Source of the DNA: Desulfomonilia bacterium
Lineage (GTDB): Bacteria; Desulfobacterota; Desulfomonilia; UBA1062
NCBI GenBank assembly: GCA_050014195.1
Contig: JBEKDT010000013.1
Location: 64,001-128,000, forward strand
Direction: 5' to 3'
DNA length: 64,000 nt
The position numbers and the translations under genes were made by a program. Below the pieces are notes generated by a model. That model worked only from the letters and a program-made list of their open reading frames with translations. It made no database searches and had not been told where the DNA came from. This document shows, one piece after another, positions 8,849 through 37,601 of this stretch. Position 1 is the stretch's first letter; the number at the start of each line of letters is the position of its first letter.

Positions 8849-9802
8849 TTATTTCCCTTTGAGATCTTTATTCGCTTCCATGTCGAACCACATGGCAAAA
8901 AGAATAAATAGGCTTGCAGACATGAACGAGAACATAGCAGCCAAGGCATTTAACGGTGGGATTCGTCCGAATTCGACCCAGACCCAGATGAGCCTTATAA
9001 AAAGGATGATCGTGAGAAAATTAAACATAATACCTATGGTATAAAAGAAAATGAGGGGGTGAAAATCACGTATGATGTACTTCTCCTTCATCCTCCACAA
9101 GAACATATTCAGCAACAGCCAACTTATTGTGAACATTACCTTAAGTATATTTATACTCGACCTTTCTCCTACATTGTAAACTGGTTCGATCGGGATGTCC
9201 GCAACACGAAAGTTGTAGACATTGAGCCGCACCAAGAGATCATTAGGCTGTCCGAATCGTTTGTACATCTTGTCCCAGTCAATGAGATGAAGTGCCCTCT
9301 TATTGATCACCGTGTACCCCGATTGGAAGTCTGCCACATGCCAATAACCGGATGCTATTTTGGTGAACAGGGAAAGTAAGGCATTTCCATAATACCTGAC
9401 CCTTGGGATTTTCTTATATGCCTCGCCGGTAAAGAGCCGATTACCCTTGGAGTAGTCGGCCTTGTCTTCCACCACCGGGTCGAGCAGGGCAGGGAGGTCG
9501 TCAGGATTCATCTGACCGTCACCTGCCATGACAGCTGCCGCATCGTATCCATTATCGCGGGCCCACTTATAACCGGAGGCGATGGCGCCGCCAACGCCCT
9601 GATTCTTATCATGAGCAATGAGTTCAAGCTTGGAATTATTTTGTTTATACCCCTTGATAATCTCTACTGTATGGTCTTTGCTGCTGTCATCGATGATGAC
9701 CATCTTGTCCACATATGATGGCATCGTCTCAATGACATTTCCAATCTGGGTCTCTTCATTATATGCCGGAATCACAACGCAGATTCTTTTGTCTTTGTAC
9801 AT
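8849..9802 (-). CDS. GT2 polyprenyl-phosphate glycosyltransferase-like with two C-terminal TM helices
   Basis: VIPAYNEE, IDDSSKD, MAGDGQ, KGNR, DFQSGY; hydrophobic C-terminus. Confidence 0.85.
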   Translation of the reverse strand: MYKDKRICVVIPAYNEETQIGNVIETMPSYVDKMVIIDDSSKDHTVEIIKGYKQNNSKLELIAHDKNQGVGGAIASGYKWARDNGYDAAAVMAGDGQMNPDDLPALLDPVVEDKADYSKGNRLFTGEAYKKIPRVRYYGNALLSLFTKIASGYWHVADFQSGYTVINKRALHLIDWDKMYKRFGQPNDLLVRLNVYNFRVADIPIEPVYNVGERSSINILKVMFTISWLLLNMFLWRMKEKYIIRDFHPLIFFYTIGIMFNFLTIILFIRLIWVWVEFGRIPPLNALAAMFSFMSASLFILFAMWFDMEANKDLKGK

Positions 9803-9939
9803 GATTTCTCCTGATAAATGGCGTTGGGCACGAAAGTATAAATAAAGGAATTCCTACTACGGGCTGGTCCCTTATGGTCATAGACCAGAACTGATACTAT
9901 TTTACGAATCCCACTCATTCGGCACCTTTCATTGACAAG

Positions 9940-9954
9940 GCAAACTCCGTGCCT
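9940..9954 (-). promoter_or_regulatory. candidate sigma54 (-24/-12) promoter for the leftward GT operon
   Basis: Minus strand AGGCACGGAGTTTGC matches TGGCAC-N5-TTGC with exact GG-N10-GC spacing. Confidence 0.5.
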
Positions 9955-10286
9955 TGCAGGTGAAATAAGTATAATTTCCGAAAAATCCCACAGCAGTCTA
10001 TTCGTTATAATTATCGAGCGAGATCATTAATAATCATTAACGATTATCAAATAGTTTCTCATGAGGAAAGCAGCTTTGTCCAATACTTTTTGAACAAGGT
10101 ATATAAATGAATTCACTTTCATATTGAATGATGCTAACACACATACAGGTGTGTAATATATAGGTTTGTGAATTAATAATGATAAGAGTACCTTTAACTA
10201 AGAAGGATATTGTGAGAATTCATTTTTGCTATCACCCTTCGCAAAGCGGAGGGCCGGAATTATTTTATAACAATTGAGAAAAAGCT

Positions 10287-12860
10287 ATGAATGAGATAAA
10301 CAAGCATCACGAATCTGTCGAAAAAGAGCTTTTGAACAATCAAACTCCATTTTCCATAAAGAATCCAGGTTTAAAATTGTTATACTTTCTTTTGGCATTA
10401 TTACCGGTAATTCTTGTCTTTGCCATATATGCCAATACTTTTGAAGGTCCATATATATTTGATGATTTGCCGAATATCACAGGCAACTATCATATTCGCC
10501 TTACCCAGATATCCCTTAAAGGCCTTATGGATGCGGGGTTTAAAAGTATTGCTTCAAACAGGCCGATACCCAACATCAGTTTTGCCCTTAATTTCTATTT
10601 TCACCAATACCATGTTTTTGGTTATCACCTGGTTAACATTATTATTCATCTCTTAGCAGGACTTTCCCTTTTTTTAGTTTTAAGAGAAACTTTAAGGATC
10701 AGCCTGAAAATACAGGCAGGCTCTTTTCCAGAATCAATAAAACCATCACTGCTGGCTTACATCGTAACAATTGTCTGGCTCGTTCACCCACTCCATACGC
10801 AGTCCATCACATATATTGTTCAAAGAATGAACAGCATGGCTTCTATGTTCTATGTATTGTCATTGTGGTTTTATATCAAAGGCCGCCTCACAAGCGGCAA
10901 TCGGAGATGGGGTTTCTTTGCAGGCTGTCTGATATCCGGGCTTCTTGCGTTTGGCTCTAAGGAGATGACTGCAACACTACCTATCTTTATATTTCTTTAT
11001 GAATGGTATTTCTTCCAGGATCTTGACAAGTCATGGATTACAAAAAAGATATTACCGGTCACATTCGTCTTGGTTTTATTATCATTGCTTACATTATTAT
11101 TTCATCCGCTGCTAGGTATTTTAGGAGGTTATAGTTTCAGGCCATTCACTCTTACGCAGAGATTATTTACCGAGTTGCGCGTAGTAATGCTCTACATCAG
11201 CCTAATCTTTTTCCCTCATCCGATGCGGCTTAATCTTGACTATGATTTTCCACTTTCCCTTTCTTTAGTAAATCCTGTTACCACGCTTTTCTCGTTTGTC
11301 TTTTTATTTTGTATTTTTGTTGCGGCAATTGTGTTGGCAAAGAAGGAAAGGTTGATTTCATTTTGCATACTTTGGTTTCTTGGTAACCTTGTTATAGAAT
11401 CATCCGTAATACCACTTGAATTAGTATATGAACATAGAACATATTTGCCATCAATGTTTTTTGTACTTCTTATTATCGTGGTATTTTATCGTTTCATCCG
11501 TATGGCAAAAGTAAGGATAGGAATTATTTGCATAATTGTTGTCATTTTCTCTGTATGGACATATCAGCGAAATACGGTTTGGAGCGATGAAGGTGACTTG
11601 CTGCGAGACATCGTAATGAAATCACCCTATAAAGCAAGATGTTATAATAATCTCGCTGCATCTTATATAAAAAAGTCAGAATATGAAAAGGCCCTCGATC
11701 AGCTTTATAAGGCGTTAGAACTCCCTAATAATAACGATTGTTTAGACCTTGTTTATGAGAACATAGGGCTTAGTTATCTTAATATGAAACAGTATGAGAA
11801 AGCGATATATTATCTAAACAAATCGATAGGAACAGTTGGCTACGATGCAAGGTTCAACCGTGCTCGGACATTACTTGGACTAGCCCTTGAAAAAACAGGA
11901 AGGGTTTCTGAGGCCATCGTTCAATATAAGGAGGCTGTCAAGGAATACCCGACTTCCCATGAAGCACAAAACTTTCTTGGTAAATATCTGGCAAAAAATG
12001 GGATGATTGAGGAAGGCAAGACTCATATCTTAGAAGCCTTGAGATTAGACCCTGCCTACAATGAAGCATATAATAATATTGCCAATATTCTTATACAAGA
12101 GGGCAAAACCGATGAGGCAATCAATTATTACAAGGAAGCATTAGCACATAATCCTCTTTATGCAGATGCATACTATAATCTTGGTATTGTAATGGCGGAG
12201 CAAGGAAGGGATATCGAAGCAATAGACTATTTCACTCATGCTATTCAGATAAGTAGATCATATTTCCCGAGTGCACGGGAAAATCTGGCAGTGCTTTTTT
12301 ACAAGAGGGGAGAATTACAGAAGGCCATTGAACAGTGCCGGCAGTTACAGCTTGCCAACCTTGCTGATGCAAAAGTTAAACAGATTCTCGCTGTCGCTGT
12401 TGATCGTAAAAATAAGATAGATACAAATATTAGCAAAGTACGCAATGCTGTTGAACGTAGCGCACAAGATCCTAAGTTATACTATCAACTCGGTGACTTA
12501 TTAAGAATGGAAGGCAATTTTGACGATGCAATTAAAAGCTATGAAAAAGCAATCTCATTTATGCCTGGTTTCTCTCAAGCATACCAACAGATCGCTATAG
12601 TTTATTCACTGAAAGGAGATAATAACAGAGCCGGATCGTATTTTCGAAAAAGCGTTGATATAGATCCTAATAACCCGGATTCATATTATAATTTAGCATG
12701 TTTGTATGCAAAGATGAACAATGTTGAAGAATCCACACGATGGTTGAAGATTGCAGTAGAAAAGGGGTTTCACAACATTGACTTGTTGAAAACAGATAGA
12801 GATCTCACAAACATAAGAAATACCTCATACTATAAGGAACTGATTCAACGCGGTGGTTGA
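10287..12860 (+). CDS. TMTC-like GT-C membrane glycosyltransferase with TPR array (paralogue 1)
   Basis: YIFDD after TM1, WLVHPLHTQSITYIVQR, SKE, YEHRTYLPS, then TPRs and YYNLACLYA end module. Confidence 0.8.
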   Translation: MNEINKHHESVEKELLNNQTPFSIKNPGLKLLYFLLALLPVILVFAIYANTFEGPYIFDDLPNITGNYHIRLTQISLKGLMDAGFKSIASNRPIPNISFALNFYFHQYHVFGYHLVNIIIHLLAGLSLFLVLRETLRISLKIQAGSFPESIKPSLLAYIVTIVWLVHPLHTQSITYIVQRMNSMASMFYVLSLWFYIKGRLTSGNRRWGFFAGCLISGLLAFGSKEMTATLPIFIFLYEWYFFQDLDKSWITKKILPVTFVLVLLSLLTLLFHPLLGILGGYSFRPFTLTQRLFTELRVVMLYISLIFFPHPMRLNLDYDFPLSLSLVNPVTTLFSFVFLFCIFVAAIVLAKKERLISFCILWFLGNLVIESSVIPLELVYEHRTYLPSMFFVLLIIVVFYRFIRMAKVRIGIICIIVVIFSVWTYQRNTVWSDEGDLLRDIVMKSPYKARCYNNLAASYIKKSEYEKALDQLYKALELPNNNDCLDLVYENIGLSYLNMKQYEKAIYYLNKSIGTVGYDARFNRARTLLGLALEKTGRVSEAIVQYKEAVKEYPTSHEAQNFLGKYLAKNGMIEEGKTHILEALRLDPAYNEAYNNIANILIQEGKTDEAINYYKEALAHNPLYADAYYNLGIVMAEQGRDIEAIDYFTHAIQISRSYFPSARENLAVLFYKRGELQKAIEQCRQLQLANLADAKVKQILAVAVDRKNKIDTNISKVRNAVERSAQDPKLYYQLGDLLRMEGNFDDAIKSYEKAISFMPGFSQAYQQIAIVYSLKGDNNRAGSYFRKSVDIDPNNPDSYYNLACLYAKMNNVEESTRWLKIAVEKGFHNIDLLKTDRDLTNIRNTSYYKELIQRGG

Positions 12861-12909: not shown

Positions 12910-15090
12910 ATGACACAAGGTGATTTACCTTATAGTTATACGAGAGCATGGATCTGTCCTTTTCTCATAATACTTATTTTCATAACACTTGCAGTGAAAT
13001 ATGCAGAACCTCTCAAGGATGGGGACCTTTGGTTTCAAATGGCTTATGGCCAATATTTATTAGAGAACCATACATTAGTACCCGACCATACAATCTATAG
13101 CTGGACTCCAACAGATGGAAAACAGATATACTGTGCATGGATAGCAGAAATTTTATTTTATACTTTATACAAAATTGGTGGTTTAAACCTTCTCTTTGCT
13201 TTCAGATATATATGTTTATTGGTTTTTCTTGTTTTCGTTATTCTTCATGCCCAAAGATACAAGGTTGCCCAAAATCCTGTTACTTGGCTGATCTGCCTGA
13301 TAGGGTCATTTATGATTCAGGCTGGTGTTCAAATCAAACCCGAAATATTCTCTTTATTATTCATGACCTTCACAGTATGGACCTGGTGGTTCGTAAAGAT
13401 TTCTCCTGAAAAAGGGTGGATGCGATGTTATCTATTCCCAGCAATTGTATTGGTCTGGGTAAACACCCATGGTGGTGTGATATTCGGCATCGCATACCTG
13501 GGCCTGCTTTTCATCGGAGAAGTATTGAATGGTTTCATATCTCAAAAGGAGAAACTTACATCAAAGACAAGAAAGCATTTTTTCATATCAATGTCTCTGT
13601 GCGTTATTGCCGTATTTCTTACCCCCTATGGATGGAGATATCCATATGATATAATCCAGAATTTTATTATAAATAGTGAATCTCAAGTTAGAGATTTCAA
13701 GACAGTCTTGGCTTATCAGACAATTTTCTTTCAAGGGGCAAGATGGCAGCATTATTTAGAATACTTCATTCTAGGAAGTGCAATCCTGGGTATTCTTTTA
13801 TGGCCAAGCCTTAAAAAGGGAAAGCTTGATTGGCCATTGGTCCTGACAAATATTGGTTTCGGATTTCTTTATATGGAATTTGTCAGAACTACCTACTTCT
13901 GGGGAATAATTTTTATATTCAGTGCAATATATCTCATTCATGACGGGTTTGTATGGTGGAGCAGGAATAAAGTCTTTTCAAAATATGCCACGATCATCAG
14001 TATCATTTTGTGTATAATCCTTTCTGGAAGAGAGATGATAGAATCAATTTGTAAACCATTATTCGGATTCTGGATCAATTATAACAGCCCTATAGAGGAG
14101 GCTGAATATATACGGAAAAACTTTGAAGGTCATCATATAGGTAATGATTATGATACAGGTTCTTATTTATTATGGTCTCTTAAGCCAGAGAAAAAGGTAT
14201 TTATTGATGCCCGTTATTTTCCTTATAAACCATGGTATCATGAATATGCTGAGTTTGAGTATGGAAGAAGTAAGAAATATAAAGATCAATTTATCAACAA
14301 GTATCGATGTGATTTGTGGTGTGTAACATATGATTTCCCTCAACTTTCTTATTTTCTAAAATCACCGGATTGGAAGTTGGTGCATTACGGCCCCGCGGCT
14401 TGTATTTTTGTTCGCAAGGATATGAATATAACCCAAGATGGTTTTGATCTAAGCAAGATTTCTCATGATAATTTACAACCTCATCAAGCATATAAACTCA
14501 TACATTTCTCATTGCAGGTCGGTGAGATAGACACAGCAGTTGCAATAGCCCAAAAAATAAATACCAGCTATTTCTGTCCCCAAAAGGAGAAGCTTATTGC
14601 TTATGCTTATATAGAATTGGGAGAGGCATTTTCAAGGAAGGGCTCTGTTGATAGATCCATAGAATATTACTTAAAAGCCCTGCATATCGGGAAAATCAAT
14701 GATCCTGAAATTTATAACAGGTTAGGCGGGTTATATTGTAAAAAGCAGGAATTTATCAAAGCCATTGAACAATATAACAAAGCATTAGCATATAAAAAGG
14801 ATTATACCCCGGCACTCCATAACTTGTCTGTTGTCTATTCACAGATGGGTAAATTTAACTATGCACTCTATTACCTGCAAAGAATGATCGAGTTGCAACC
14901 CAATGATTCTGAAGCCTATTACAATGTTGCCTGCATATATTCCAGGCAGAAAAAGGTTGATGAAGCAATCGATTGGTTGAATAAAGCTATAGAGAGAGGA
15001 TTTAACAATTGGAATCTTATGAAGTCAGATAATGATTTGGCCAATATTAGGCAATCATTGTACTATCAAAATATTATAAAGAATCATTGA
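12910..15090 (+). CDS. polytopic GT-C-like membrane protein with TPRs (different family)
   Basis: DGDLWFQMAYG after TM1, WVNTHGG, FIDARY, C-terminal TPRs and YYNVACIYS module. Confidence 0.65.
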   Translation: MTQGDLPYSYTRAWICPFLIILIFITLAVKYAEPLKDGDLWFQMAYGQYLLENHTLVPDHTIYSWTPTDGKQIYCAWIAEILFYTLYKIGGLNLLFAFRYICLLVFLVFVILHAQRYKVAQNPVTWLICLIGSFMIQAGVQIKPEIFSLLFMTFTVWTWWFVKISPEKGWMRCYLFPAIVLVWVNTHGGVIFGIAYLGLLFIGEVLNGFISQKEKLTSKTRKHFFISMSLCVIAVFLTPYGWRYPYDIIQNFIINSESQVRDFKTVLAYQTIFFQGARWQHYLEYFILGSAILGILLWPSLKKGKLDWPLVLTNIGFGFLYMEFVRTTYFWGIIFIFSAIYLIHDGFVWWSRNKVFSKYATIISIILCIILSGREMIESICKPLFGFWINYNSPIEEAEYIRKNFEGHHIGNDYDTGSYLLWSLKPEKKVFIDARYFPYKPWYHEYAEFEYGRSKKYKDQFINKYRCDLWCVTYDFPQLSYFLKSPDWKLVHYGPAACIFVRKDMNITQDGFDLSKISHDNLQPHQAYKLIHFSLQVGEIDTAVAIAQKINTSYFCPQKEKLIAYAYIELGEAFSRKGSVDRSIEYYLKALHIGKINDPEIYNRLGGLYCKKQEFIKAIEQYNKALAYKKDYTPALHNLSVVYSQMGKFNYALYYLQRMIELQPNDSEAYYNVACIYSRQKKVDEAIDWLNKAIERGFNNWNLMKSDNDLANIRQSLYYQNIIKNH

Positions 15091-15108: not shown

Positions 15109-15858
15109 TTGTATCGCAATAAAAAAGTTATTGTCGTAATGCCGGCATATGAGGCAGAGGAGACTTTGAAGAGGACTTATGATGAGGTGATGGCGCAGGG
15201 GGTAGTGGACCTGGTGATCATAGTGGATGACAATAGCAAAGACCAAACTGTCGAGATTGCCAAATCCCTTGCCGACACCATGGTTCACAAGCATAATAAA
15301 AATTCCGGTTATGGCGGCAACCAAAAGACCTGTTATAAACTTGCACTTCAACAGGGTGGAGACATTGTTATTATGGTGCATCCCGACTATCAGTATACCC
15401 CCAAGCTCATACCCAGTATGGTTTCGATGATCGGTAGCGGCCTGTATCACTGTGTGCTCGGTTCGCGAATCCTTGGCGGATACGCTCTCAATGGTGGAAT
15501 GCCCTTGTGGAGGTATGTCTCAAACCGGTTTCTCACATTTGTTGAGAATATCCTTATGAATGCAAAACTCTCGGAGTATCATACCGGTTATCGGGCATTT
15601 TCACGAGAGTTGCTTGAAAGGGTTCCATTTCAGAAGAACTCCGACGACTTTGTATTTGATAACCAGATGCTCGCTCAAATTCTCTGGTTAGGCTATACTA
15701 TTGCAGAAGTAAGTTGTCCCACGAATTATTTTGAAGAAGCATCTTCCATTAATTTTATGAGAAGCATCAAGTACGGTTTCAGTTGCTTAAATACTGCACT
15801 TTCTTTCAGGCTTGCCAGAATGGGGCTTATCAAATCCGCTCTTTTTACTTCTGCTTAA
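15109..15858 (+). CDS. GT2 DPM1-like polyprenyl-phosphate sugar synthase
   Basis: VMPAY, VDDNSKD, GYGGNQK, HPDYQY, LGSR, EYHTGYRAF; TTG start. Confidence 0.88.
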   Translation: MYRNKKVIVVMPAYEAEETLKRTYDEVMAQGVVDLVIIVDDNSKDQTVEIAKSLADTMVHKHNKNSGYGGNQKTCYKLALQQGGDIVIMVHPDYQYTPKLIPSMVSMIGSGLYHCVLGSRILGGYALNGGMPLWRYVSNRFLTFVENILMNAKLSEYHTGYRAFSRELLERVPFQKNSDDFVFDNQMLAQILWLGYTIAEVSCPTNYFEEASSINFMRSIKYGFSCLNTALSFRLARMGLIKSALFTSA

Positions 15859-15895: not shown

Positions 15896-17779
15896 ATGAA
15901 TAAATATTGGATCAAGAGTATTATTGTCATAATCATCGCTGCATGTGTGTTTACAGCATATTGGCAAGTTAATGGATTTAATTTTGTTAACTTCGATGAT
16001 CCAGTGTACATAACTACAAACAAGGACATCAGACACGGGTTGACCCTCGATGGCCTTGAGTTTGCTTTCACCTGTGTTTATGCCTCCAACTGGCACCCCC
16101 TCACATGGATCTCCCATATGCTGGATGTTGAAATGTTCGGGCTTAATCCAGGCATGCATCACCTTACCAATGTGTTTCTTCACATCTTAAACAGCATTCT
16201 CTTGTTTCTTGTGTTCGAACGTATGACAGGTGCGATCTGGAGGAGCGCTGCAGTCGCAGCCCTGTTCGCGCTCCATCCTATCCATGTCGAGTCAGTAGCG
16301 TGGATATCTGAACGTAAGGATGTGCTGAGCACTTTCTTCTGGATGCTCACCATGTTGGCCTATCATTGGTATGTCATGAATAAAACAATCTCAAGATACC
16401 TTCTGGTAGCATTGCTCTTCGGGCTTGGACTTATGGCAAAACCCATGTTGGTAACGCTTCCCTTTGTACTGCTGCTCCTGGATTTCTGGCCGCTTAGGAG
16501 AAATGAACTCGCCTTTCGATTGATTGCGACCGATTCCAAGCATGAACAAAACATATGGTCTCATATAAACCTGCATGGAGCATTACCGTTGATTCTTGAG
16601 AAGATCCCTCTCATAATTATGGCCATCATAGCCGGCAGTGAGACTTTCTATGCACAGTGGGTAGGCGGGGCGGTAAATTCCTTAGGGCAAGTGCATTTAG
16701 CAATGAGGGTACAAAACGCCATTACCTCTTATGTGGCCTACCTCTGGAAAATGATATGGCCGATGCATTTGTCGGTTTTTTATCCATATCCGTGGCACTT
16801 CAACATCGCTGTCGTGGCTTCATGCCTTATATTCCTCACCGTAGTAACCTTTACTGTTCTTATTGTTGGAAAGAAAATGCCCTATCTTGCAACAGGCTGG
16901 CTTTGGTATCTGGGTACACTGGTGCCTGTTATCGGCATCATAAAGGTCGGCTCTCAGGCGATGGCTGACCGATATACCTATATCCCGCTCATTGGAATAT
17001 TTGTCATGGTTGTTTGGGGTTTAAGAGACATATTCTATAGATGGAGTTATGGTAAAGTTGCCCTTGGATCGCTGGCATTGATTATCCTGGCGTTGCTCAC
17101 TTGGGCAACATCAATCCAGGTGGCTACCTGGAAGAACAGTGAAATTCTGTTCAGTCATGCCCTGGCTGTAACCGGAGACAACTACTTAGCCCATGATAAT
17201 CTTGGGGTGGCTCTTTTTGATAGGGGTGATGTGGATGGTGCTATCAAACATTATAGGGAATCCATCAGGCTCAGAAAAAATTACGTGAATGCACAATGCA
17301 ACCTGGGGGTGGCACTGGCGAAGAAGAAGCAGTATGCCGAGGCATTTACCCACTATCGCGAATGCCTGAGGATCAAACCGGGATATTCAGAGGCATATTA
17401 CAACATGGGAGTAGCTCTTGCTGACCTTGGCAGGAAAGATGAAGCCGTCAAACAATACACAGAGGTCCTGAAGAACTATCCCCAGCATGAAAATGCCCAC
17501 AGAAATTTAGGCCTTCTGCTGGCTGAAAAGGGCAATTTTGATGAGGCAATAGCGCATTATTATAAGGCCCTTGATGCTAATCCTGACAACGTCGGGACAC
17601 GTATCAACCTTGCCGATTCACTATTGAAGCAGGGCAATATTGAAAGAGCACTGATTCAAATTGAAGAGGCTCTCAAAATCGATCCCAAAAACCTGAACCT
17701 GCATACAAAGTTCGAAGAGATTCAAATGAAGAAAAGAGGCTCTTGCACGACCTACAAAAATTTGCCGCCACCCAAGTGA
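15896..17779 (+). CDS. TMTC-like GT-C + TPR (paralogue 2)
   Basis: FVNFDDPVY, NWHPLTW, LFALHPIHVESVAWISERK, ADRYTYIP, TPRs; start moved to ATG 15896. Confidence 0.82.
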   Translation: MNKYWIKSIIVIIIAACVFTAYWQVNGFNFVNFDDPVYITTNKDIRHGLTLDGLEFAFTCVYASNWHPLTWISHMLDVEMFGLNPGMHHLTNVFLHILNSILLFLVFERMTGAIWRSAAVAALFALHPIHVESVAWISERKDVLSTFFWMLTMLAYHWYVMNKTISRYLLVALLFGLGLMAKPMLVTLPFVLLLLDFWPLRRNELAFRLIATDSKHEQNIWSHINLHGALPLILEKIPLIIMAIIAGSETFYAQWVGGAVNSLGQVHLAMRVQNAITSYVAYLWKMIWPMHLSVFYPYPWHFNIAVVASCLIFLTVVTFTVLIVGKKMPYLATGWLWYLGTLVPVIGIIKVGSQAMADRYTYIPLIGIFVMVVWGLRDIFYRWSYGKVALGSLALIILALLTWATSIQVATWKNSEILFSHALAVTGDNYLAHDNLGVALFDRGDVDGAIKHYRESIRLRKNYVNAQCNLGVALAKKKQYAEAFTHYRECLRIKPGYSEAYYNMGVALADLGRKDEAVKQYTEVLKNYPQHENAHRNLGLLLAEKGNFDEAIAHYYKALDANPDNVGTRINLADSLLKQGNIERALIQIEEALKIDPKNLNLHTKFEEIQMKKRGSCTTYKNLPPPK

Positions 17780-20321: not shown

Positions 20322-20395
20322 GATGTATTTCGAATTTAAAAATCCGAAATAGTAGCAAGTTGATCAGCACCACAACGTGTTATGAGTGAAAAGCA

Positions 20396-24911: not shown

Positions 24912-25111
24912 ATATATATTACAATATAGCATGTGTTTATGCGAAGCAAAATATGGTTACTGAATCAGTGTCATGGTTAGGCAAGGCGATTCAAATGGGA
25001 TTCAGCAATTACGATTTGATAAAGACAGACCCTGATCTTGCTCATATCAGAGATACCGAACTCATGAATAATATTTTGAAATCTGTTAATGCCAAGAGTA
25101 TAATAAAATAG
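24908..25111 (+). CDS. stand-alone copy of the TPR C-terminal end module (small protein or gene remnant)
   Basis: YYNIACVYAKQN...WLGKAIQMGF...IKTDPDLAHIR repeats the tail of the upstream gene; ATGA overlap. Confidence 0.65.
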   Translation: MNIYYNIACVYAKQNMVTESVSWLGKAIQMGFSNYDLIKTDPDLAHIRDTELMNNILKSVNAKSIIK

Positions 25112-27803: not shown

Positions 27804-27804
27804 T

Positions 27805-28979: not shown

Positions 28980-31742
28980 ATGGTGGGATCACCAAGTACT
29001 AGTATTAGTGAGAAGAATTTATGTTATGAGGGGATATGCTTGGACAATAGCCATAGTAGCAAAGAAATGAATAATTCTAATTCTATCTTACCCAAGCCCT
29101 TCATTTTCTATTTCATTATCATTATTCTTCCTTTTCTAATGTTTTTTTGGATGATACCTTTTATTGGCAACATTACTTTAGGTAATGATTATACTCTTTA
29201 CCCAACTGCACATCAAATGGAGCTTATGTTCTCCATAAAGACTGGATCTTTTCCTCTTTACATTCCTGGCTTCGCAGGTGGTCAATCTTCTTCAGCACTA
29301 ACTCTAGGGCAAATATTTCATCCCATATCCTGGATCTCTGCGCATATGCCTGGATATTGGGATGGGAAAGCCTTGGAATGGAATACTCTTTTCCGATTGC
29401 TCTCTCTCGGTTTAACCCAATTATTGTTATTTGAATTTTTACGGAGATTGAAATTTAATAACCTTGTCTCTTTTTTACTTTCCTTTGTGACAGTTTATAA
29501 TCTTCGAATGCTCGATTTATTTCGTTATGGAGCATCACTTGAAAGTTGGACAGGGCATCTGCTTCTTTGTACTGCAATCGGATTATATTATCTTAACCAG
29601 AAGGGCGGTTGGAAAGAACCTTTATTTATCATCGGATCAACGTACTGGCTTGTCTGTAGTGGTCATCCACAAATGATGTATTACGGTTTGCTCGGTGCCG
29701 GTCTTTTTGCTTTAATAATACCATATTTTGTGTCGATTTTCTTGCCGGAAAAAGGTGTTGAGATAAAAAATCTGATCAGATTTTGGGGGAAGACGGCCCT
29801 TTTTTGTTGTGCAGGGATTGTACTATCATCTGCATACATAGTTCCCTTTTATTTTGACTTTATGACAACTTCAGCAAGGATTGGAAAGAGTTATGAATGG
29901 GCCAATATGTATTATACTGACACATTTATAGGAACAATAAACAATTTTTTCCAGCCCCTCAGGACTACAGTGGACGGGAATTTCGGTGGAACATCATTAT
30001 TCATCATTCCTGCACTAATACCTTTATTATTATTTCTTCGTGTAAGAGTTCCACGTGTCATTTGGGCAACATGGATATTAGTCCTTTTTGCATTTTTACA
30101 TATGCAGGGTGATAGAACACCGGTTCATTATATTGTTTGGAAATGCTTGCCCTTAGCTTCTTCATTTAGGGTTGCAGGTAGGATCGCAATGATCATCCCT
30201 ATATTGTTAATGTTAATGCTTGCTTGGTTATTTCGATCAAATTCTCCTGCATCAACATCAATAAATAAAAAATTAAAAGTTAATCCTGTAATGATCTTAG
30301 CTTGCATAGGTATGCTATTAATCACAGTGTACAACTTAATCCCAAACTCTATTACTTCGAATACACATGAGTTCTGTCCGGCAAATATACATCTAATTCC
30401 AAACAGTATAATGATACTTTACATTATATTGGGGATGCTTGCTCTCCTAACATTTTGTATACATAATATCTTTAGTAACAAAAAATACATTACAGAATTT
30501 ATATTGTGCATAATTACTTGCATACAGGTTATGATACTTTTGGGATGTGGTACATGGATGGAATACAAGAAGGATACTCCCAATTTCCAGTCGATGACCT
30601 TTCAAAAAATTAAGGGGCTTGATTACCAAGGTAAAACAGGGGTGGGATTAAATCAAGCCATCATTATGAAGCAAGTAGAACGATCATATCTGGAACCCTT
30701 TCTTGGGAAGTTTTATTCTCAGCATATTAATGCTCAAAGCAATGAAGATGCCTATTCAATAATGGAAAGAGGTCGTACTCCAGATCAAGTTGTTTTAGAA
30801 GGATATAACCCTAAGAATAATAAACTAGAAAATAGGCAATTAGCTGAGAAAACTTCAGGCCATGTGAAATTGATTTATAGTTCTTTTAACCGGTTGATCT
30901 TTGAAGTCTCTTCCTTAAAACCTGGCTTTTTAGGCCTTTCCTACCCATACAATGGGCATTGGAGAGCAATACTTAAGAAGCAGTATGTTCCAGTTTATAG
31001 GGCTAATGGTGCTTCACATGCTGTATATGTACCTGCTGGTACCAATCTTGTTGAATTCAGATATTGGAGCACTGCTGCTTTTGTTGGAATAGTTTTAAGC
31101 TGTTCTATGATTATCATTATTGGATTTATTTTCATGCATAGATTTTCAACAAAAAATGTAGGATATGTATTCACAATTTTATCCCTTATTTTTAGTATAA
31201 GTATTTTTATTATTTGGTATTATAGCTTGTATACAGGCAAAAACCTTAATACGGTTTATACATGGGAATCTTCTCCTGAAACTTATAATAATCTTGCTTA
31301 TAGTAAGAGGACTGAAATGTCGTCTTCAACACTAATACCTGATTCTTTACTCAATGATCCAGGTACAGCTTATCTAAAACAATATCCATATCTGTATACT
31401 AGTGGCAAAGCTGTCGATGGTGATCGATCTCCAAAATCTGGTTTTATTACAGCTTTAGTAAACCAACCATGGTGGAGGGTAGATCTAAATCGTGTAGAGA
31501 ATATTGGTTCTATCGTTATTTATGAATCTCTTATAGGCGATAACTGGAATGTACGTCCGTTGATGTTGGCATATTCAAATGATAAAATCACATGGGGAGT
31601 AATGAAATTTTCTAATTCTGGGCCAAAAATTTGGCTTCATTTTAATAAACCTATAACTGCTCGATATGTTGAGATAATGTCTTCTGGATATTGTAAGCTC
31701 TCCTTTGATGAAGTAGAGATTTATCCCCTAATTGAAAGATAA
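28980..31742 (+). CDS. YfhO-like GT-C membrane protein with C-terminal F5/8-type C / F-type-lectin-like domain
   Basis: GNDY after TM1, GHPQ, YNGHWRA..VYRANG..AVYVPAG..VEFRY; tail AVDG..PWWRVDL..ARYVEI..EVEIY; start uncertain. Confidence 0.7.
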   Translation: MVGSPSTSISEKNLCYEGICLDNSHSSKEMNNSNSILPKPFIFYFIIIILPFLMFFWMIPFIGNITLGNDYTLYPTAHQMELMFSIKTGSFPLYIPGFAGGQSSSALTLGQIFHPISWISAHMPGYWDGKALEWNTLFRLLSLGLTQLLLFEFLRRLKFNNLVSFLLSFVTVYNLRMLDLFRYGASLESWTGHLLLCTAIGLYYLNQKGGWKEPLFIIGSTYWLVCSGHPQMMYYGLLGAGLFALIIPYFVSIFLPEKGVEIKNLIRFWGKTALFCCAGIVLSSAYIVPFYFDFMTTSARIGKSYEWANMYYTDTFIGTINNFFQPLRTTVDGNFGGTSLFIIPALIPLLLFLRVRVPRVIWATWILVLFAFLHMQGDRTPVHYIVWKCLPLASSFRVAGRIAMIIPILLMLMLAWLFRSNSPASTSINKKLKVNPVMILACIGMLLITVYNLIPNSITSNTHEFCPANIHLIPNSIMILYIILGMLALLTFCIHNIFSNKKYITEFILCIITCIQVMILLGCGTWMEYKKDTPNFQSMTFQKIKGLDYQGKTGVGLNQAIIMKQVERSYLEPFLGKFYSQHINAQSNEDAYSIMERGRTPDQVVLEGYNPKNNKLENRQLAEKTSGHVKLIYSSFNRLIFEVSSLKPGFLGLSYPYNGHWRAILKKQYVPVYRANGASHAVYVPAGTNLVEFRYWSTAAFVGIVLSCSMIIIIGFIFMHRFSTKNVGYVFTILSLIFSISIFIIWYYSLYTGKNLNTVYTWESSPETYNNLAYSKRTEMSSSTLIPDSLLNDPGTAYLKQYPYLYTSGKAVDGDRSPKSGFITALVNQPWWRVDLNRVENIGSIVIYESLIGDNWNVRPLMLAYSNDKITWGVMKFSNSGPKIWLHFNKPITARYVEIMSSGYCKLSFDEVEIYPLIER

Positions 31743-31804: not shown

Positions 31805-32539
31805 TTGTTTTATGAAGCTAAGGATGCAGAGATGCCAGGTTCCTATCTGAAAGATAAGAAAATGTTATTTCACGATGAGCTGGGATCGAAAAAAATTTGG
31901 GATGATTTTGCAAACAACTATGAGACAGTTCGAAGGTTGCATCTAGTCTTTGGAACATTTATTAACCCATCTGATTTGAATGGGAGTCTTTTCCTTGATG
32001 CAGGAAGTGGAGGTGGTCACTTCTCCCAAAAAGCAGAAGAATATGGAGCTAAGGTCATTTCTTTTGATATTGGATTGAATCTTCTTAAACAGGTGAGAAA
32101 TAGATGTTCAAGTAAAAAGGTTTCTGGCAGTGTACTGCAATTACCTTTTAAAGAGGACATCTTTGATGTGGTTCTTTCAACTGAGGTTATTGAACACACA
32201 CCTTCCCCTGTCAGTGCTATTCGAGAAATGTGCTCTGTTGTAAAACCTGGTGGCCTCCTTATTATAACCGTACCATGTCGATTATGGAATTTTGTTGTAA
32301 GGGCAGCATCATATTTCAGATTGCGTCCTTATCGGGGGTATGAGAATTTTCTTTGGCCTAATGAAATAAAAAAAGTAATCGAAGAAGAGGGCTTCCATAT
32401 TGAAACGTTAAGGGGTTTTAATTTCTGTCCAATTTTTACTAATAAACTTGATAGGCTGTTTATGTTTTTTGATAATCTCTATGGATTAAGATGGCCTCAT
32501 TTAATGGTTAACATTGCTGTAAGAGCAAGAAAGAGATAG
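31805..32539 (+). CDS. class I SAM methyltransferase (UbiG-like fold)
   Basis: LDAGSGGG, FDVVLSTEVIEH, VKPGG. Confidence 0.85.
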   Translation: MFYEAKDAEMPGSYLKDKKMLFHDELGSKKIWDDFANNYETVRRLHLVFGTFINPSDLNGSLFLDAGSGGGHFSQKAEEYGAKVISFDIGLNLLKQVRNRCSSKKVSGSVLQLPFKEDIFDVVLSTEVIEHTPSPVSAIREMCSVVKPGGLLIITVPCRLWNFVVRAASYFRLRPYRGYENFLWPNEIKKVIEEEGFHIETLRGFNFCPIFTNKLDRLFMFFDNLYGLRWPHLMVNIAVRARKR

Positions 32540-32597
32540 TTATAATATAAGCCAGCAGATTAATGAATATGTATTTTGTTCTGGAAGGAGTTTATAG

Positions 32598-33512
32598 TTG
32601 ATATCAATTATAATACCGGCATTTAACGAATCTGAAAATATTGAAATAATAGCTAACAGGGTTTCCCATGAACTTAAGGCCTATGAGCCTTTCGAGATAA
32701 TTTTTATTGATGATGGGAGCACTGATGCAACATTAGAGAAAATTAAGGCACTCTCTGCATTGAATAACAATATTAAGTACATATCCTTTTCCAGAAATTT
32801 TGGTCACCAGAAGGCTTTAATGGCAGGGATTGAGCATGCCAGTGGAGATTGTGTCATTAGTATGGATGCAGATATGCAGCACCCTCCAGAGATCATCAAG
32901 AACATGCTCGATAAATGGAAAGAAGGATATGATATTGTCTATAGTGTTAGACGGGATACAACTGAGACTGGTCTTTTAAAAAAGATAACATCTGGTTGTT
33001 TTTATAAATTGGTAAATAAGATATGTGAGATAGACATCCCCTTAGGTTCAGCTGACTTTAGACTTCTTGATAGAAAGGTTGTACTCGAACTAAGAAAATT
33101 TAAAGAGAATTGGTTATTTTTACGAGGTATTATTGCCTGGTTAGGATTCAAGCAGATAGGGATTGAATATGTCGTACAAAAAAGGCATGCAGGAAAGTCA
33201 AAATATTCCTTTAGAAAGATGCTAAGTCTCTCAATCCAGGGTATAACCTCTTTCAGTATTATGCCACTAAGAATTGCGGCATTTTTAGGTATTCTGTTTT
33301 CAATAGGTTCCTTCATATATATAATGTATGCACTATATGCAAAGCTCATTTTAGGCATTGCCATTGTTGGATGGACCTCAGTCTTGATATCAGTGTTATT
33401 CTTAGGAGGAATTCAATTGATTTTTTTAGGCATATTAGGAGAATATCTAGGTAAAATGTTCATTGAAACTAAAAATAGACCAAATTATATAATAAATGAA
33501 AAAAAAGTATGA
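32598..33512 (+). CDS. GT2 GtrB-like bactoprenol glycosyltransferase
   Basis: IDDGSTD, FSRNFGHQ, MDADMQHPPE, ADFRLLDR, GILGEYLGK..KNRP. Confidence 0.92.
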   Translation: MISIIIPAFNESENIEIIANRVSHELKAYEPFEIIFIDDGSTDATLEKIKALSALNNNIKYISFSRNFGHQKALMAGIEHASGDCVISMDADMQHPPEIIKNMLDKWKEGYDIVYSVRRDTTETGLLKKITSGCFYKLVNKICEIDIPLGSADFRLLDRKVVLELRKFKENWLFLRGIIAWLGFKQIGIEYVVQKRHAGKSKYSFRKMLSLSIQGITSFSIMPLRIAAFLGILFSIGSFIYIMYALYAKLILGIAIVGWTSVLISVLFLGGIQLIFLGILGEYLGKMFIETKNRPNYIINEKKV

Positions 33513-33689: not shown

Positions 33690-33930
33690 TTATCATTCCA
33701 TCCGCAGTCATGTTATTCAGTTCAAGCTTTCGCTTTCCTATCACAAGGGAAAAAATGAAGCGATTGAACAATTTAACGTTGTTTGGAGTATAAACCCAGG
33801 GAATATACAGGTCCAGAAAATTTATCCCTGTTATTATTAATTCATTGGTTTTATCATTACAGGGACTACTGTTTTGATTCTGATTCTCATATACTTGGAT
33901 CAGGGAAGACTGGTGATGAAGCGAGCATCC
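33690..33930 (+). pseudogene. decayed TPR-encoding remnant
   Basis: Frameshifted fragments LSQGK/NEAIEQFNVVWSINPGN and YLDQGRL/DEA in a gap with no ORF. Confidence 0.5.
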
Positions 33931-34047
33931 AGGGAATCTGATGAATATGTCACTTAATCAACTCCACCGCGACCCTAAATAATGGTATTTGATGCTCACA
34001 CGTGATAGTATAATCTTTTCAATCGCATCAAGGATGGATGTTACTAG

Positions 34048-36309
34048 GTGAAAAAAAGCAATAACAGCGAGAAGCATAGTAGACTTGAAAATATTTCCCA
34101 AATGAAGCTAACAAGGTTTTTGTTTGTCCATAGCGAGATCTTTGTTCTCCTTTTTCTGATTAGTACGATATTCACCCTCTATTGGCAAGTCCTTGGCTTC
34201 CCATTCACTTACATGGACGATCCAACCTATGTGATCAAGAACACTCACGTACAAAAGGGGATATCCTTGGACAGTATTGCCTGGGCCTTCAGCTTCAAAC
34301 ATGGAGAAAATTTAAACTGGCACCCGCTTACCTGGATCAGCCACATGTTGGATTACCAACTTTTTGGATTGAACCCCGGAATGCACCACATAAGCAATGT
34401 ATTCTATCATACCTTAAACACCATACTGTTATTTCTTTCATTAAGATGGATGACTAACTCGGTATGGAAGAGCGCATTCGTAGCTGCTCTCTTTGCCTTG
34501 CATCCTGTCAATGTAGATTCAGTTGTATGGATCGCAGAGCGGAAAAATCTTTTGAGCACCACATTCTGGATGCTCACGATTATCTCTTACTTTTATTATA
34601 CCAGGAAGCCTAATACTATCTCGTATCTTCTCATCATCTTTACATTTTGTCTTGGTATGCTTGCAAAAACAATGTTGATGACCCTGCCATTTGTTCTCTT
34701 GCTGCTGGACTACTGGCCGCTCGGTAGGCTGAAACCTCCTCGATCAGGCAAGGATAATCAACAATGGGCTTCTTTTTTCCATGATGCCGCCCGTCTTTTT
34801 ATCGAGAAGATTCCTCTGATAATCTTAACACTTACATTTATATATGCAACCATGTTATCACTCAAGTACTCTGCGCAGATTAGTGCCAATCAAAATTTCC
34901 CTATGCATCTCAAGATCCAGAATGCAATAGTCTCCTACTTGATATACATGGGGAAAATGGTCTGGCCGAAGGACCTATGCATTTTCTATCCATTCCCAGA
35001 ATTTATACCGTTGTGGAAGCCGATAGTATCAATAGTGGCTCTTTTGTTCATAACGGCCATGGCTCTGCTAAAAAGTCGGAAATATCCCTATCTCATTGTT
35101 GGCTGGCTTTGGTTTCTTGGTGCGCTCGTGCCGGTACTCGGGATTATACAGGCAGGCCTCTGGCCTGCTATAGGTGAGCGTTGGGCATATGTCCCTTATA
35201 TAGGTTTGTTCGTTATTATTGCGTGGGGGATCCCTGATCTTTTTTCACATATTCCTCAGAAAAAGATCATCTTCACTGGGGCTGTCATTGTGGTATTAAC
35301 CTTGCTCACATTGCGGACATTGTTTCAAATAGGATATTGGAAGGATGATGTTACCCTTTTTTCTCATTGTATTAAAATCAATCCAGATAATAATGTTGCC
35401 CAAACTAATCTTGGAAATATCTATGCTTTTCAAGGTAAATCCGAAGAGGCTTTTCATCATTTTCATGAAGCACTGAGAATACACCCCAATGATGTCTTTG
35501 CCTTGGATGGTCTAGCGCGCCTCTACAATAAGATGGGACAATATGATAAATCGATTCAATTTTATAAAGAGGAAATAGGGTATCATCCGAAAGATGTTAA
35601 CTTATATTTTAACTCGAATTTTGATCTTGGAACTGTATATGCTGCCAAAGGAGATCTTGAAAAGGCTATCAAACAATTTTCTTATGTGATTAGTCTGAAT
35701 CCAGATTATGCACTGGCATATTACAACCTTGGAATTATCTCTGTACAGAGGCAAGATATGAGTAAAGCAACGGAATACTTCTCATTGGCACTTAAGCTAA
35801 ATAATGAAGACAAAGACTCACATTGTTCTCTGGGTGCGGTCCTGATGAAACAGGGAAGGATCGATGATGCTATAAATCAATTTAATGAGGCCTTGAGGAT
35901 TGACCCTCATTTTAAGGAGGCTAGAAATTACTTAGCATCGGCGGGACTTATCAAGAAAAAGGTGGATGAGAATATTGTAAAGCTTGAACAGGATAAAGTG
36001 AGAGAGCCCAACAATCCTGATGTATTACAAAAATTGGCTGTACTCTATGCAAAGAAAGGTGAAAATTCAAAAGCCCTAGATAACTTAAAGAGATTGGTTG
36101 AGATCCAACCCGCAAATCCAAATGGATATTATAATATTGCATGCGTATATGCAAAAGAGGGTAATGTAAACCTTTCTATAGAATGGTTAAAAAAATCTCT
36201 TGATAAAGGATTTAAGGATTGGAATCTGTTGAAGACAGATAAGGACCTTGATAACATTAGAACATCACATTTCTATAAAGATTTAATTCAAAAAATTTCA
36301 GACAAATGA
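34048..36309 (+). CDS. TMTC-like GT-C + TPR (paralogue 4)
   Basis: FTYMDDPTY, NWHPLTW, LFALHPVNVDSVVWIAERK, GERWAYVP, TPRs, YYNIACVYA module. Confidence 0.82.
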   Translation: MKKSNNSEKHSRLENISQMKLTRFLFVHSEIFVLLFLISTIFTLYWQVLGFPFTYMDDPTYVIKNTHVQKGISLDSIAWAFSFKHGENLNWHPLTWISHMLDYQLFGLNPGMHHISNVFYHTLNTILLFLSLRWMTNSVWKSAFVAALFALHPVNVDSVVWIAERKNLLSTTFWMLTIISYFYYTRKPNTISYLLIIFTFCLGMLAKTMLMTLPFVLLLLDYWPLGRLKPPRSGKDNQQWASFFHDAARLFIEKIPLIILTLTFIYATMLSLKYSAQISANQNFPMHLKIQNAIVSYLIYMGKMVWPKDLCIFYPFPEFIPLWKPIVSIVALLFITAMALLKSRKYPYLIVGWLWFLGALVPVLGIIQAGLWPAIGERWAYVPYIGLFVIIAWGIPDLFSHIPQKKIIFTGAVIVVLTLLTLRTLFQIGYWKDDVTLFSHCIKINPDNNVAQTNLGNIYAFQGKSEEAFHHFHEALRIHPNDVFALDGLARLYNKMGQYDKSIQFYKEEIGYHPKDVNLYFNSNFDLGTVYAAKGDLEKAIKQFSYVISLNPDYALAYYNLGIISVQRQDMSKATEYFSLALKLNNEDKDSHCSLGAVLMKQGRIDDAINQFNEALRIDPHFKEARNYLASAGLIKKKVDENIVKLEQDKVREPNNPDVLQKLAVLYAKKGENSKALDNLKRLVEIQPANPNGYYNIACVYAKEGNVNLSIEWLKKSLDKGFKDWNLLKTDKDLDNIRTSHFYKDLIQKISDK

Positions 36310-36676
36310 TTATATATAGTGACTATTGAACTTACTTAAATATGTGTATTTCTCAAGATGCCGGGATTCTTGTTCTTGCTTCTCGATATATGCTCTAACA
36401 GTATCCTTATCCTTACTAAAAGTGGGCACATATTACCCCTGTAATCTTACCAGGCTCACAGAATTCCATTGCAATAGTTTTTCTCAATCTGATAAGATAA
36501 AATTATTGTTATGAAATATAAAAAATGACAAATTACTAGATACAGTATGACAAAGAGAATTATTATTTCAATGCATTATGTGTAATGTCCGGAATAATAT
36601 CTAGTAATATATTATAATCGTTGTATAAGATAATTTTTTATACTGCTTCGAAAAGTCATATATGTAAAGGAGTGAT

Positions 36677-37135
36677 ATGAAAATATTAAAAATTATAATA
36701 GCCGGACTATCCCTTATTCTAATAATTTATGCCTGTAGCAGTGGGCATAACACAACAGGTGGTGTAGGTTGGTACCCTATACTCACAGATGTTCATATGT
36801 TTAATGTCAATGATTCTACTAATCCAGTTGAGGAATCTACATTTGGGGTTGGTGATCATGTAAGCTTTGATATTGATGCTGAAGATGATGATCTGAATAT
36901 GAAAACCTTTTGGGTGACTGAAGTTTCATTAACCACTACTGAAACGACCACACTTGTTAGTGGCCCAATCGCTGTTGCATTACCTGGACAAAACGGCCAG
37001 CAGATCGTGTCGTGGACTAATATTGACCCGATAACAATATTAAAGCCAACTGGGAAATTTAGAATGGATTTTCAGATAGAGGATGCGACAGGCAATAAAT
37101 CATATGTAGTATCAATAACTTATACAGTAAAGTGA
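36677..37135 (+). CDS. putative lipoprotein, Thr-rich, predicted beta-sandwich
   Basis: MKILK + hydrophobic stretch + IYAC lipobox; AAGGAG RBS; DAEDDDLN and QIEDATGNKS patterns. Confidence 0.7.
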   Translation: MKILKIIIAGLSLILIIYACSSGHNTTGGVGWYPILTDVHMFNVNDSTNPVEESTFGVGDHVSFDIDAEDDDLNMKTFWVTEVSLTTTETTTLVSGPIAVALPGQNGQQIVSWTNIDPITILKPTGKFRMDFQIEDATGNKSYVVSITYTVK

Positions 37136-37220
37136 ACTAAGCCTATCTTTATATTTTTGAAGCATTTAAGATGTTAAAGAATTGATATAAAAGGAAAAGA
37201 GAGGAGTTTGAGTAAGAACC

Positions 37221-37601
37221 ATGAAAAATCTTTGCAACATTTTGTGGAAGAGATTTTCCATTACGATTGTGATCTTGTTATTAGGTCTGGTTATCATATT
37301 TTCAGGATGTGGTGGCGGAGAGTTTTCAGGTTATAACTTCACCATATCCGGTGCAGTGAGTGGCGCGATCACACAAGGTGTTACCATAGCATTAACTGAT
37401 GAAAGTGAACAGCAAGAAGGCGTTGCGGTAACTGATTCTAATGGAAACTATACCTTTAGTAACCTTTCGAACGGGTCATATATTGTCACACCATCTTTTT
37501 CCGGTTACACATTCAATCCAACCTATCAAGTAGTTAAAATCAGCAGTGCAACGGTTACTAACATTGACTTTACATCCGTAGAAAATACGCAGGGGGAGTA
37601 G
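37221..37601 (+). CDS. putative lipoprotein with carboxypeptidase-regulatory-like (prealbumin fold) domain
   Basis: FSGC lipobox; TISGAVSG..GVTIAL..TDSNGNYTFSNLSNGSYIVTPS..GYTF. Confidence 0.8.
   Translation: MKNLCNILWKRFSITIVILLLGLVIIFSGCGGGEFSGYNFTISGAVSGAITQGVTIALTDESEQQEGVAVTDSNGNYTFSNLSNGSYIVTPSFSGYTFNPTYQVVKISSATVTNIDFTSVENTQGE

Follow-up and report, generated by a model that had tools for sequence, protein, structure and literature searches.

Six GT-C-type membrane proteins, four of them TMTC-like, and linked sugar-donor genes in a predicted glycosylation island of an uncultured Desulfomonilia-type bacterium

TMTC1-4 are membrane proteins of 11 helices with an Asp-Asp (DD) pair in the first lumenal loop, seven sequence motifs and a lumenal tetratricopeptide repeat (TPR) domain (PMC7801869). 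These metazoan enzymes O-mannosylate cadherins in the endoplasmic reticulum and form family GT105 of CAZy, as named in PMC8724618; homologues are said to occur 'even among prokaryotes' (PMC7801869). Here we analyse a stretch of 64,000 nucleotides (contig JBEKDT010000013.1, positions 64,001 to 128,000, assembly GCA_050014195.1), called the window below, in which positions 8849–37601 hold an island of genes for TMTC-like membrane proteins of the GT-C class of glycosyltransferases and for enzymes of sugar donor synthesis. The source organism is an uncultured Desulfomonilia-type member of Thermodesulfobacteriota from peat; the closest named homologue is 93% identical.

GT-C enzymes that work on lipid-linked sugars are described in bacteria. 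TfpW of Pseudomonas aeruginosa, a GT-C protein predicted to have 11 helices, carries its DDX motif and its TPR domain in the periplasm and is required for pilin glycosylation (bioRxiv 10.1101/2020.04.19.049825). The streptococcal systems PgfS/PgfM1 and GtrB/PgtC2, each combining a glycosyltransferase family 2 (GT2) enzyme with a GT-C enzyme, O-glycosylate Ser/Thr-rich regions, attaching single sugars to Ser/Thr residues of proteins outside the cytoplasm (PMC12041528). Three-component systems comprise GtrA/GtrB/Gtr*, ArnC/ArnT, CsbB/YfhO and the GT136 systems (PMC11127046). With these systems characterised and prokaryotic TMTC homologues in print, the view of the first-pass annotation that no characterised bacterial example exists does not hold. 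In the literature searched, no bacterial TMTC-like protein with an assigned sugar or acceptor was found.

Positions 10287–36309 of the window code for six GT-C-type membrane proteins, all on the plus strand. Four are TMTC-like paralogues, named A (10287–12860), B (15896–17779), C (22896–24911) and D (34048–36309). The other two are 12910, named X-type (12910–15090), and the YfhO/AftD-like 28980 (28980–31742). The same island of about 28 kb includes five GT2 genes, one flippase-like gene and two sugar pathways, for GDP-L-fucose and for dTDP-4-amino-4,6-dideoxyhexose. In total 8849–37601 comprises twenty genes, two on the minus strand and the rest on the plus strand. The six large open reading frames are all present as first described, the putative flippase (17802–18908) matches flippase-like domain models, and the interleaved nucleotide-sugar pathways proposed at first are the two named here. 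We read the island as about four stacked 'three-component' extracytoplasmic glycosylation cassettes whose TPR enzymes would act on proteins, and give this reading a probability of roughly 0.5. It builds on the gene content, the GT-C folds, the motif conservation and the linkage to donor synthases observed here.

Compared by published description only, TfpW, a pilin D-arabinofuranosyl transferase of the inner membrane with a cytoplasmic N-terminus, resembles A–D in its GT-C domain, its DD pair and its C-terminal TPRs. The TfpW gene lies directly downstream of the acceptor gene pilA, whereas the island has no pilin gene, and the TfpW donor, decaprenyl (polyprenyl) phosphate arabinofuranose, is made by a different route. 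The island is like the three-component systems in that a GT2 synthase, a flippase-like protein and a GT-C protein are encoded together; GT2 32598 is a GtrB homologue and 28980 is YfhO-like. The known three-component systems have one or two GT-C enzymes without TPRs, whereas six GT-C proteins of three unrelated families and five GT2 enzymes occur here within 28 kb. The flippase candidate also differs, being of the MprF flippase type and not GtrA, MATE or ArnE/F.

Paralogues A–D are 627–857 residues long; about 430 residues form a polytopic N-terminal domain, and TPRs come after it. The DD pair comes after the first hydrophobic segment, as IFDD in A, NFDD in B and C and YMDD in D, and all four proteins carry an HP..V..W...R block and an (E/D)R..Y.P block. 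Sequence and alignment thus bear out the DD, HP and R.Y.P motifs of the first-pass annotation, as well as the TPRs that it placed after the membrane domain, which are seen in all four paralogues and also in 12910. In a 51-sequence alignment of C and 50 homologues, D45, D46, H100, H107, R151, K193, Y374 and P376 are invariant, which argues that the motifs are not due to chance. The membrane domains of B, C and D are 47–51% identical to each other, and that of A is 21–26% identical to them. Paralogue A scores 323 bits on the hidden Markov model (HMM) of the TMTC-like membrane domain, with the motifs IFDD, HPLHTQS and KEMTAT.

The AlphaFold2 model of C (pLDDT, predicted local distance difference test, 91.0; pTM, predicted template modelling score, 0.87) has about 11 helices, with the TPRs directly after the last one. 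Foldseek with the whole C model against the PDB gives TPR proteins only among the 36 matches listed. The membrane domain alone was compared with 48,161 chains by VIA-align, for which the stated noise level for helical proteins is about 13. It matches STT3 (6s7t_A, 18.8 / 368), AglB (3waj, 18.7 / 332), Pmt2 (6p2r_B, 18.4 / 367), Pmt4 (9e61, 17.6 / 354), ArnT (5f15, 16.6 / 337) and PglB (5ogl, 16.5 / 316). Since these values exceed the noise and the aligned part takes in most of the sequence compared, the membrane domain of C adopts the GT-C fold, as had been supposed at first. No TMTC or TMEM260 chain is among the 50 VIA-align matches listed for either the C or the 12910 model, and a profile of the four membrane domains has no match at E≤10 among PDB sequences.

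The TMTC motifs listed in Table 4 of PMC7801869 (M2 SHKSYRP, M3 RxD, M4 KE(T/Q)xxT, M5 DW, M6 PxxP and M7 ERxxY) were compared by eye with the alignments of A–D and of the 51 sequences. A–D are like TMTC1-4 in having about 11 helices, a DD loop after the first transmembrane helix (TM1) and a C-terminal TPR array. M1, the DD pair, is kept in 51/51 sequences. M7 is kept before TM10, as AERWVY in C, GERWAY in D and DRYTY in B; the arginine of ERxxY binds the lipid phosphate in solved relatives (PMC7801869). The helix HP(I/L)H..(S/A)V is shared, with the M3 arginine 13 residues past the histidine as in human TMTC3, although M3 is complete (RKD) in B only. The M4 lysine in the third loop is invariant. 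M6 is kept as PYIP in D and as P376 with I378-P379 in the wider alignment, and earlier in the same helix one proline (P355) is conserved.

Other features differ from TMTC. M2 is replaced by (Y/N)WHPLTW, in which the H and P alone are kept. The carrier would be undecaprenyl and not dolichyl phosphate, and the donor genes point to fucose, amino-dideoxyhexose and hexose instead of the mannose of TMTC. Pfam TMTC_DUF1736 (PF08409) has no match at E≤1 on the four membrane domains. The only Pfam family that matches them, and weakly, is PMT_2 (PF13231, cut-off 26.1), which is borderline on B (27.0–29.4 bits), below the cut-off on D (19.7) and C (18.8) and without a match on A. In the protein Atlas the nearest clusters to the TMTC-like proteins are bacterial (0.97–0.98), with PMT_2 in 27–30% of members; the feature match to a chordate DUF1736 cluster (0.92, rank 19) is a lead only. 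Of the TMTC architecture that had been claimed, the GT-C fold, the helix layout, the DD pair, the TPRs, M1, M6, M7, the arginine of M3 and the lysine of M4 stand, whereas the DUF1736 match fails. Because there is no such match, PMT_2 is nearest and the motifs are partly kept, we call A–D TMTC-like and not TMTC. Within GT-C they are best described as TMTC-like proteins of the PMT/ArnT branch and are not proven members of the TMTC family.

The TPR proteins might not be such transferases at all, but Wzy/WaaL-like polymerases or ligases, ArnT-type lipid modifiers or inactive scaffolds. Paralogue B has a weak Wzy_C_2 match (6e-5, under the cut-off), PMT_2 also covers ArnT-like modifiers of lipid A, and the proteins lack most of the metal-binding residues of the TMTC motifs M4 and M5. 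This explanation is nevertheless improbable. The fold matches are GT-C glycosyltransferases across most of the membrane domain, and the DD pair and the arginine of ERxxY show no or almost no variation. Separate ArnT-like PMT_2 genes that lack TPRs also occur in the genome; there are about seven, and at least three have a GT2 gene of their own next door.

The donor genes lie among the GT-C genes in four cassettes, which run along the strand. Cassette 1 consists of A (a divergent TMTC-like GT-C domain, TPRs and a C-terminal cap), X-type 12910, GT2 15109 (15109–15858, plus strand) and B (TMTC-like GT-C with NFDD and ERKD, TPRs and no cap), with the flippase-like gene (17802–18908, minus strand). 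GT2 15109 is a soluble protein of 249 residues like dolichyl-phosphate mannose synthase (Glycos_transf_2 7e-23); its match to the Pyrococcus Dol-P-Man synthase 5mlz is weak (1.3e-10). The flippase-like membrane protein, of the MprF flippase-domain type, matches LPG_synthase_TM at 7.5e-45 and the flippase-like domain TIGR00374 with 89 bits (cut-off 43.2), and is the sole flippase candidate of the island. Before cassette 1 lies GT2 8849 (8849–9802, minus strand; Glycos_transf_2 2.3e-25), a candidate polyprenyl-phosphate sugar synthase with three hydrophobic segments at 217–308. Its best NCBIfam matches, AglJ and PpgS, are far under their cut-offs, and its orthologues, 52–68% identical, adjoin TMTC-like genes in two other loci (L033 and L039).

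Cassette 2 consists of gmd and fcl (19203–21343, plus strand), a methyltransferase-GT2 fusion (21350–22801, plus strand) and C (TMTC-like GT-C with NFDD, TPRs and cap). Gmd matches TIGR01472 with 584 bits (cut-off 415) and Fcl matches NF047922 with 488.7 bits (cut-off 500), which gives the GDP-L-fucose pathway. The fusion joins Methyltransf_31/25 to Glycos_transf_2 and reaches 107 bits on the AglJ-type model, under the cut-off.

Cassette 3 begins with the genes of 25211–28953 (plus strand), an amino-dideoxyhexose donor cassette whose gene ends overlap. In order these are an ArnC-like GT2 (25211), a WecD-like GNAT, a methyltransferase and a WecE-type transaminase, and 28980 follows. GT2 25211 matches ArnC with 182 bits over residues 2–303 of 315 (cut-off 529 bits). 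The transaminase scores 597 bits, over its cut-off, and the GNAT scores 67 bits, a weak match; together with the methyltransferase they would make a modified 4-amino-4,6-dideoxyhexose. The best sigma-70-like match of the region (11/12, at 25076–25104) is in the gap before the ArnC-like GT2. Its position would suit independent transcription of cassette 3, although promoter-like (51 vs 54.4) and terminator-like (18 vs 13.8) sites are overall at chance, being no commoner than in shuffles.

Cassette 4 consists of a methyltransferase, GT2 32598 (both in 31805–33512, plus strand) and D (TMTC-like GT-C with YMDD, TPRs and cap). GT2 32598 is of the GtrB/PgfS type of polyprenyl-phosphate hexose synthases: it matches GtrB 5ekp over its full length (E 2.2e-80) and PgfS with 295 bits, under the cut-off. 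GT2s 8849, 25211 and 32598 have C-terminal hydrophobic helices, and as polyprenyl-phosphate sugar synthases these three are well supported. For 15109 and 21350, which had been placed in the same class, the case is weaker, since both are weakly like Dol-P-hexose synthases and have no membrane segment.

The linkage of GT2 and GT-C genes was surveyed from both sides. From the donor side, 80 metagenome loci were fetched with 15109; 8 had no called GT2 open reading frame and in 4 no neighbour was visible, so that 68 loci are informative. The 15109 relatives in these loci (L085–L164) are 66–77% identical and are annotated only as family 2 glycosyltransferases. A TMTC-like or X-type gene is the immediate neighbour in 29/68 loci and lies at most three genes away in 37/68; seven more loci have a PMT_2 GT-C gene next door, so that 44/68 have a GT-C gene close by. 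The count indicates that the 249-residue GT2 of the 15109 type is a dedicated partner of GT-C enzymes. The group is highly conserved as well as very abundant: 8000/8000 candidates match at E≤1e-20, and among the matches listed most are 75–83% identical. A related island with four TMTC-like genes is found in a Smithellaceae chromosome (L048, OY820932.1, 2961310–2981682). It has orthologues of 25211 (61% identical), of WecE (68%) and of the methyltransferase-GT2 fusion (62%), the fusion lying between TMTC-like genes.

On the GT-C side, at least 666 TMTC-like stretches occur among species-representative genomes of many phyla, 7960 of the 8000 TMTC-like candidates scored were significant, and the JGI names some homologues 'protein O-mannosyl-transferase'. 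The TMTC-like profile was used to fetch 77 species loci, in 5 of which the gene ran off the contig and no TMTC-like open reading frame was called. Arrays of 2 to 7 TMTC-like genes are found in 25/77, mostly without GT2 or glycan genes. The present genome itself has six more TMTC-like genes outside the island, which adjoin genes for cytochrome bd, TonB, IleRS, RpoA, a chemoreceptor and RNase PH. Among the flanking proteins scanned, no GT2 was seen at any of the six, and the scanned flanks contain no glycan genes. For most TMTC-like genes the donor has to come from another place. A 519-residue polytopic membrane protein without a Pfam family (L006 6786–8345, C3) is encoded directly beside the TMTC-like copy that diverges most. 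The window also contains a seventh, ArnT-like GT-C gene (59609–61363, minus strand; PMT_2 2.9e-10, no TPR), which adjoins a TetR regulator and an HlyD/ABC pair.

The two remaining GT-C proteins, 12910 and 28980, have no Pfam GT-C match. The first-pass annotation called both GT-C-like; 12910 has a GT-C fold by model, and 28980 resembles YfhO and AftD proteins in the Atlas. AlphaFold2 and VIA-align give 12910 a GT-C fold; the model runs from a GT-C membrane core through a mixed alpha/beta domain, predicted to be periplasmic (about residues 385–510), to the TPRs, after which comes the cap. This order recalls human TMEM260, which combines a GT-C domain, a Rossmann-like domain and TPRs, and in which the TPR domain by itself can bind the acceptor peptide (bioRxiv 10.64898/2026.03.17.711096). 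Unlike in TMEM260, PF11028 has no match at E≤1 on 12910, and its sole match in the genome at E≤10 is on another contig. D37-G-D39 and W41 are the invariant residues of the X-type, D37 and D39 being invariant in 51 X-type sequences. None of 12 sampled homologues of 12910 (12/12) matches a Pfam GT-C family, and hhalign of 12910 against the TMTC-like domain finds no profile similarity (probability 1.5%). At E≤1e-3 the family comprises 8363 cluster representatives, and at E≤1e-30 it comprises 292; 58/301 sampled genomes of the phylum carry it. The present genome has a second copy 27 kb upstream (L007 3454–5835), with 45% identity. On the modelled fold, 12910 appears to be one of a large separate GT-C family, which is matched by no Pfam model here.

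For 28980, YfhO is found in 33% of the members of its own Atlas cluster; the Atlas model has a TM-score of 0.64–0.73 to clusters that are 81–92% YfhO, and AftD clusters score 0.93–0.94. Pfam YfhO (PF09586) has no match at E≤1 on the protein. Its C-terminal F5/8 type C domain (F5_F8_type_C_2 1.3e-9) is of a carbohydrate-binding type.

The TMTC-like and X-type proteins share a C-terminal cap, a 42-residue module KGF.NW.L.K.D.DL.NIR. Of the GT-C/TPR proteins of the genome, 9/12 end in it: paralogues A, C and D, the two X-type proteins and four of the dispersed TMTC-like proteins. It spans two unrelated GT-C families; B ends without it. The island copies are at about 12735–12860, 14965–15090, 24786–24911 and 36184–36309, all on the plus strand. 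With the cap HMM, nothing else in the genome falls below E 0.06, and PF22316 gives only sub-threshold matches to the cap. In the other loci searched the cap is rare, with two open reading frames in the species loci and one in the metagenome loci. Recent gene conversion was considered as the cause and rejected: the 3′ ends of the four island copies have 73% mean column identity, with many synonymous differences, which indicates that selection, and not gene conversion, keeps the cap at the protein level. Docking of the enzymes on a common partner through the cap is a possibility.

The proposed mechanism proceeds in four steps. Cytoplasmic enzymes would make GDP-L-fucose (Gmd, Fcl), dTDP-4-amino-4,6-dideoxyhexose (WecE-type), which neighbouring enzymes may acylate or methylate, and at least one plain hexose. 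The GT2 beside each pathway would load the sugar onto polyprenyl (undecaprenyl) phosphate. The lipid-linked sugar would next cross to the periplasm, for which the MprF-flippase-like protein is a possible flippase. There the GT-C enzyme, by means of the acidic pair that follows TM1, would pass the single sugar to an acceptor. The TPR arms of A–D and 12910 may select periplasmic or secreted proteins for O-glycosylation of Ser/Thr, while 28980 more likely decorates a surface polysaccharide. The lipid-linked donors, the periplasmic site and the transfer of single sugars are what we infer.

The island is continuous with other glycan genes, and here another explanation has to be weighed. All six GT-C proteins may decorate the polysaccharide of the flanking locus (O antigen, exopolysaccharide or rhamnan) or lipopolysaccharide, with fucose, amino-dideoxyhexose and hexose side branches added in the periplasm as in the Gtr, GacI/GacL-type and GT136 systems; the TPRs would then dock on export or assembly machinery. 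Window positions 1–9800 contain rmlA, rmlC, rmlD, GT4 and GT2 genes. Just upstream there are a Wzx-type flippase, an RgpF rhamnan-synthesis protein, rhamnosyl O-methyltransferases, acyltransferases and the second X-type gene. At 39.8%, the G+C content of 10287–37601 is below that of the genome (50.2%) and of window positions 37874–64000 (50.6%), which suggests a variable or acquired glycan region; low G+C is frequent in variable glycan loci. X-type genes adjoin WecE, GNAT, methyltransferase or GT2 genes in 5/29 short loci, a weakly informative count with flanks of 1.5 kb. For 28980 the carbohydrate-binding module of the GT136 founder, which binds the O-antigen backbone (PMC11127046), offers a parallel to the F5/8 type C domain, and YfhO relatives glycosylate teichoic acids, though proteins too (PMC12041528). 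In the 20 kb directly upstream of the window (L007), the RgpF-domain protein has 988 residues, the sugar O-methyltransferases are of the TylF and CmcI types and the acyltransferase_3 genes number three.

This polysaccharide explanation is a serious one, with odds somewhat against it. The six dispersed TMTC-like genes stand among housekeeping genes and not in glycan loci, and the arrays of 2 to 7 copies form a pattern unusual for serotype-converting enzymes. The characterised GT-C enzymes with TPRs found in print, TMTC, TMEM260 and TfpW, all act on proteins. The TPR arms of B, C and D also diverge faster than the catalytic domains, which favours protein acceptors: identity in the arm is 27.5% for B and C, 31.2% for B and D and 37.9% for C and D, vs 47.8%, 46.6% and 50.7% in the membrane domain.

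Several observations weigh against the reading of the island as protein glycosylation cassettes. Together with the rhamnan/O-antigen-type locus the island makes up about 55 kb of glycan genes, and rhamnans and O antigens are what a GT2 with a GT-C classically decorates (PMC11127046). Across the genome TMTC_DUF1736 has no match at E≤10 (14 candidates scored). Compared with TMTC as published, the metal-binding glutamate of M4 is present in paralogue A only (KEMTAT), and M5 DW is not found in the A–D alignments. The DD loop and the TPR array are predicted to lie on the periplasmic side from homology to solved GT-C enzymes and from the K/R-rich N-termini. The gene-neighbourhood survey is strong from the GT2 side and weak from the GT-C side, where a GT2 of the window type lies within the flank in 9/77 species loci, against a rough background of about 7% per 20 kb from 16 matches in 4.2 Mb of this genome. 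Of the periplasmic protein O-glycosylation first proposed, the GT-C fold and the interleaved donor synthases are in place; the acceptors may be proteins or glycans, and the island sits within a surface-polysaccharide locus.

Two small predicted lipoproteins (36677–37601, plus strand), each with a Cys after a hydrophobic leader, follow D and are speculative acceptors only. One has a TTTETTT stretch, and the other a CarboxypepD_reg beta-sandwich (1.4e-10; 37221–37601). They too count against protein acceptors, since across the 77 species loci no relative of either adjoins a TMTC-like gene, bar one weak match (L061). As acceptors beyond speculation they were rejected, the linkage to TMTC-like genes not being conserved. 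Tandem CarboxypepD_reg repeats also occur in unlinked genes of the genome (C2:5869–6888, C17:447–932, C5:33648–34145 and C1:10242–11087).

A wider proposal, which we regard as rather unlikely, is that the TMTC-like and X-type proteins form a widespread machinery of periplasmic protein O-glycosylation. Each paralogue would serve one sugar and one set of secreted proteins through its TPR arm, and the cap would dock all of them on a single shared partner, for instance a translocon or an assembly factor. If this were true, fucose, a 4-amino-4,6-dideoxyhexose derivative and hexose would be attached from dedicated polyprenyl-phosphate donors.

The principle of a lipid-linked donor and a periplasmic GT-C enzyme is already established, and the gain is incremental. 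What is new is the 249-residue GT2 beside a GT-C gene in 44/68 loci, the large X-type family without a Pfam match here and the cap common to both GT-C families. In environmental bacteria, genes for TMTC-like GT-C proteins with TPRs are very common. The island, unlike most TMTC-like loci, names likely donors, with its paralogues linked to a GDP-fucose pathway, a WecE-type amino-sugar pathway and a GtrB-type synthase. Because specific donors are named for the paralogues, defined reconstitution with GT2, GT-C and nucleotide sugar is possible. The island also points to the 15109-type GT2 as a general partner of such GT-C enzymes.

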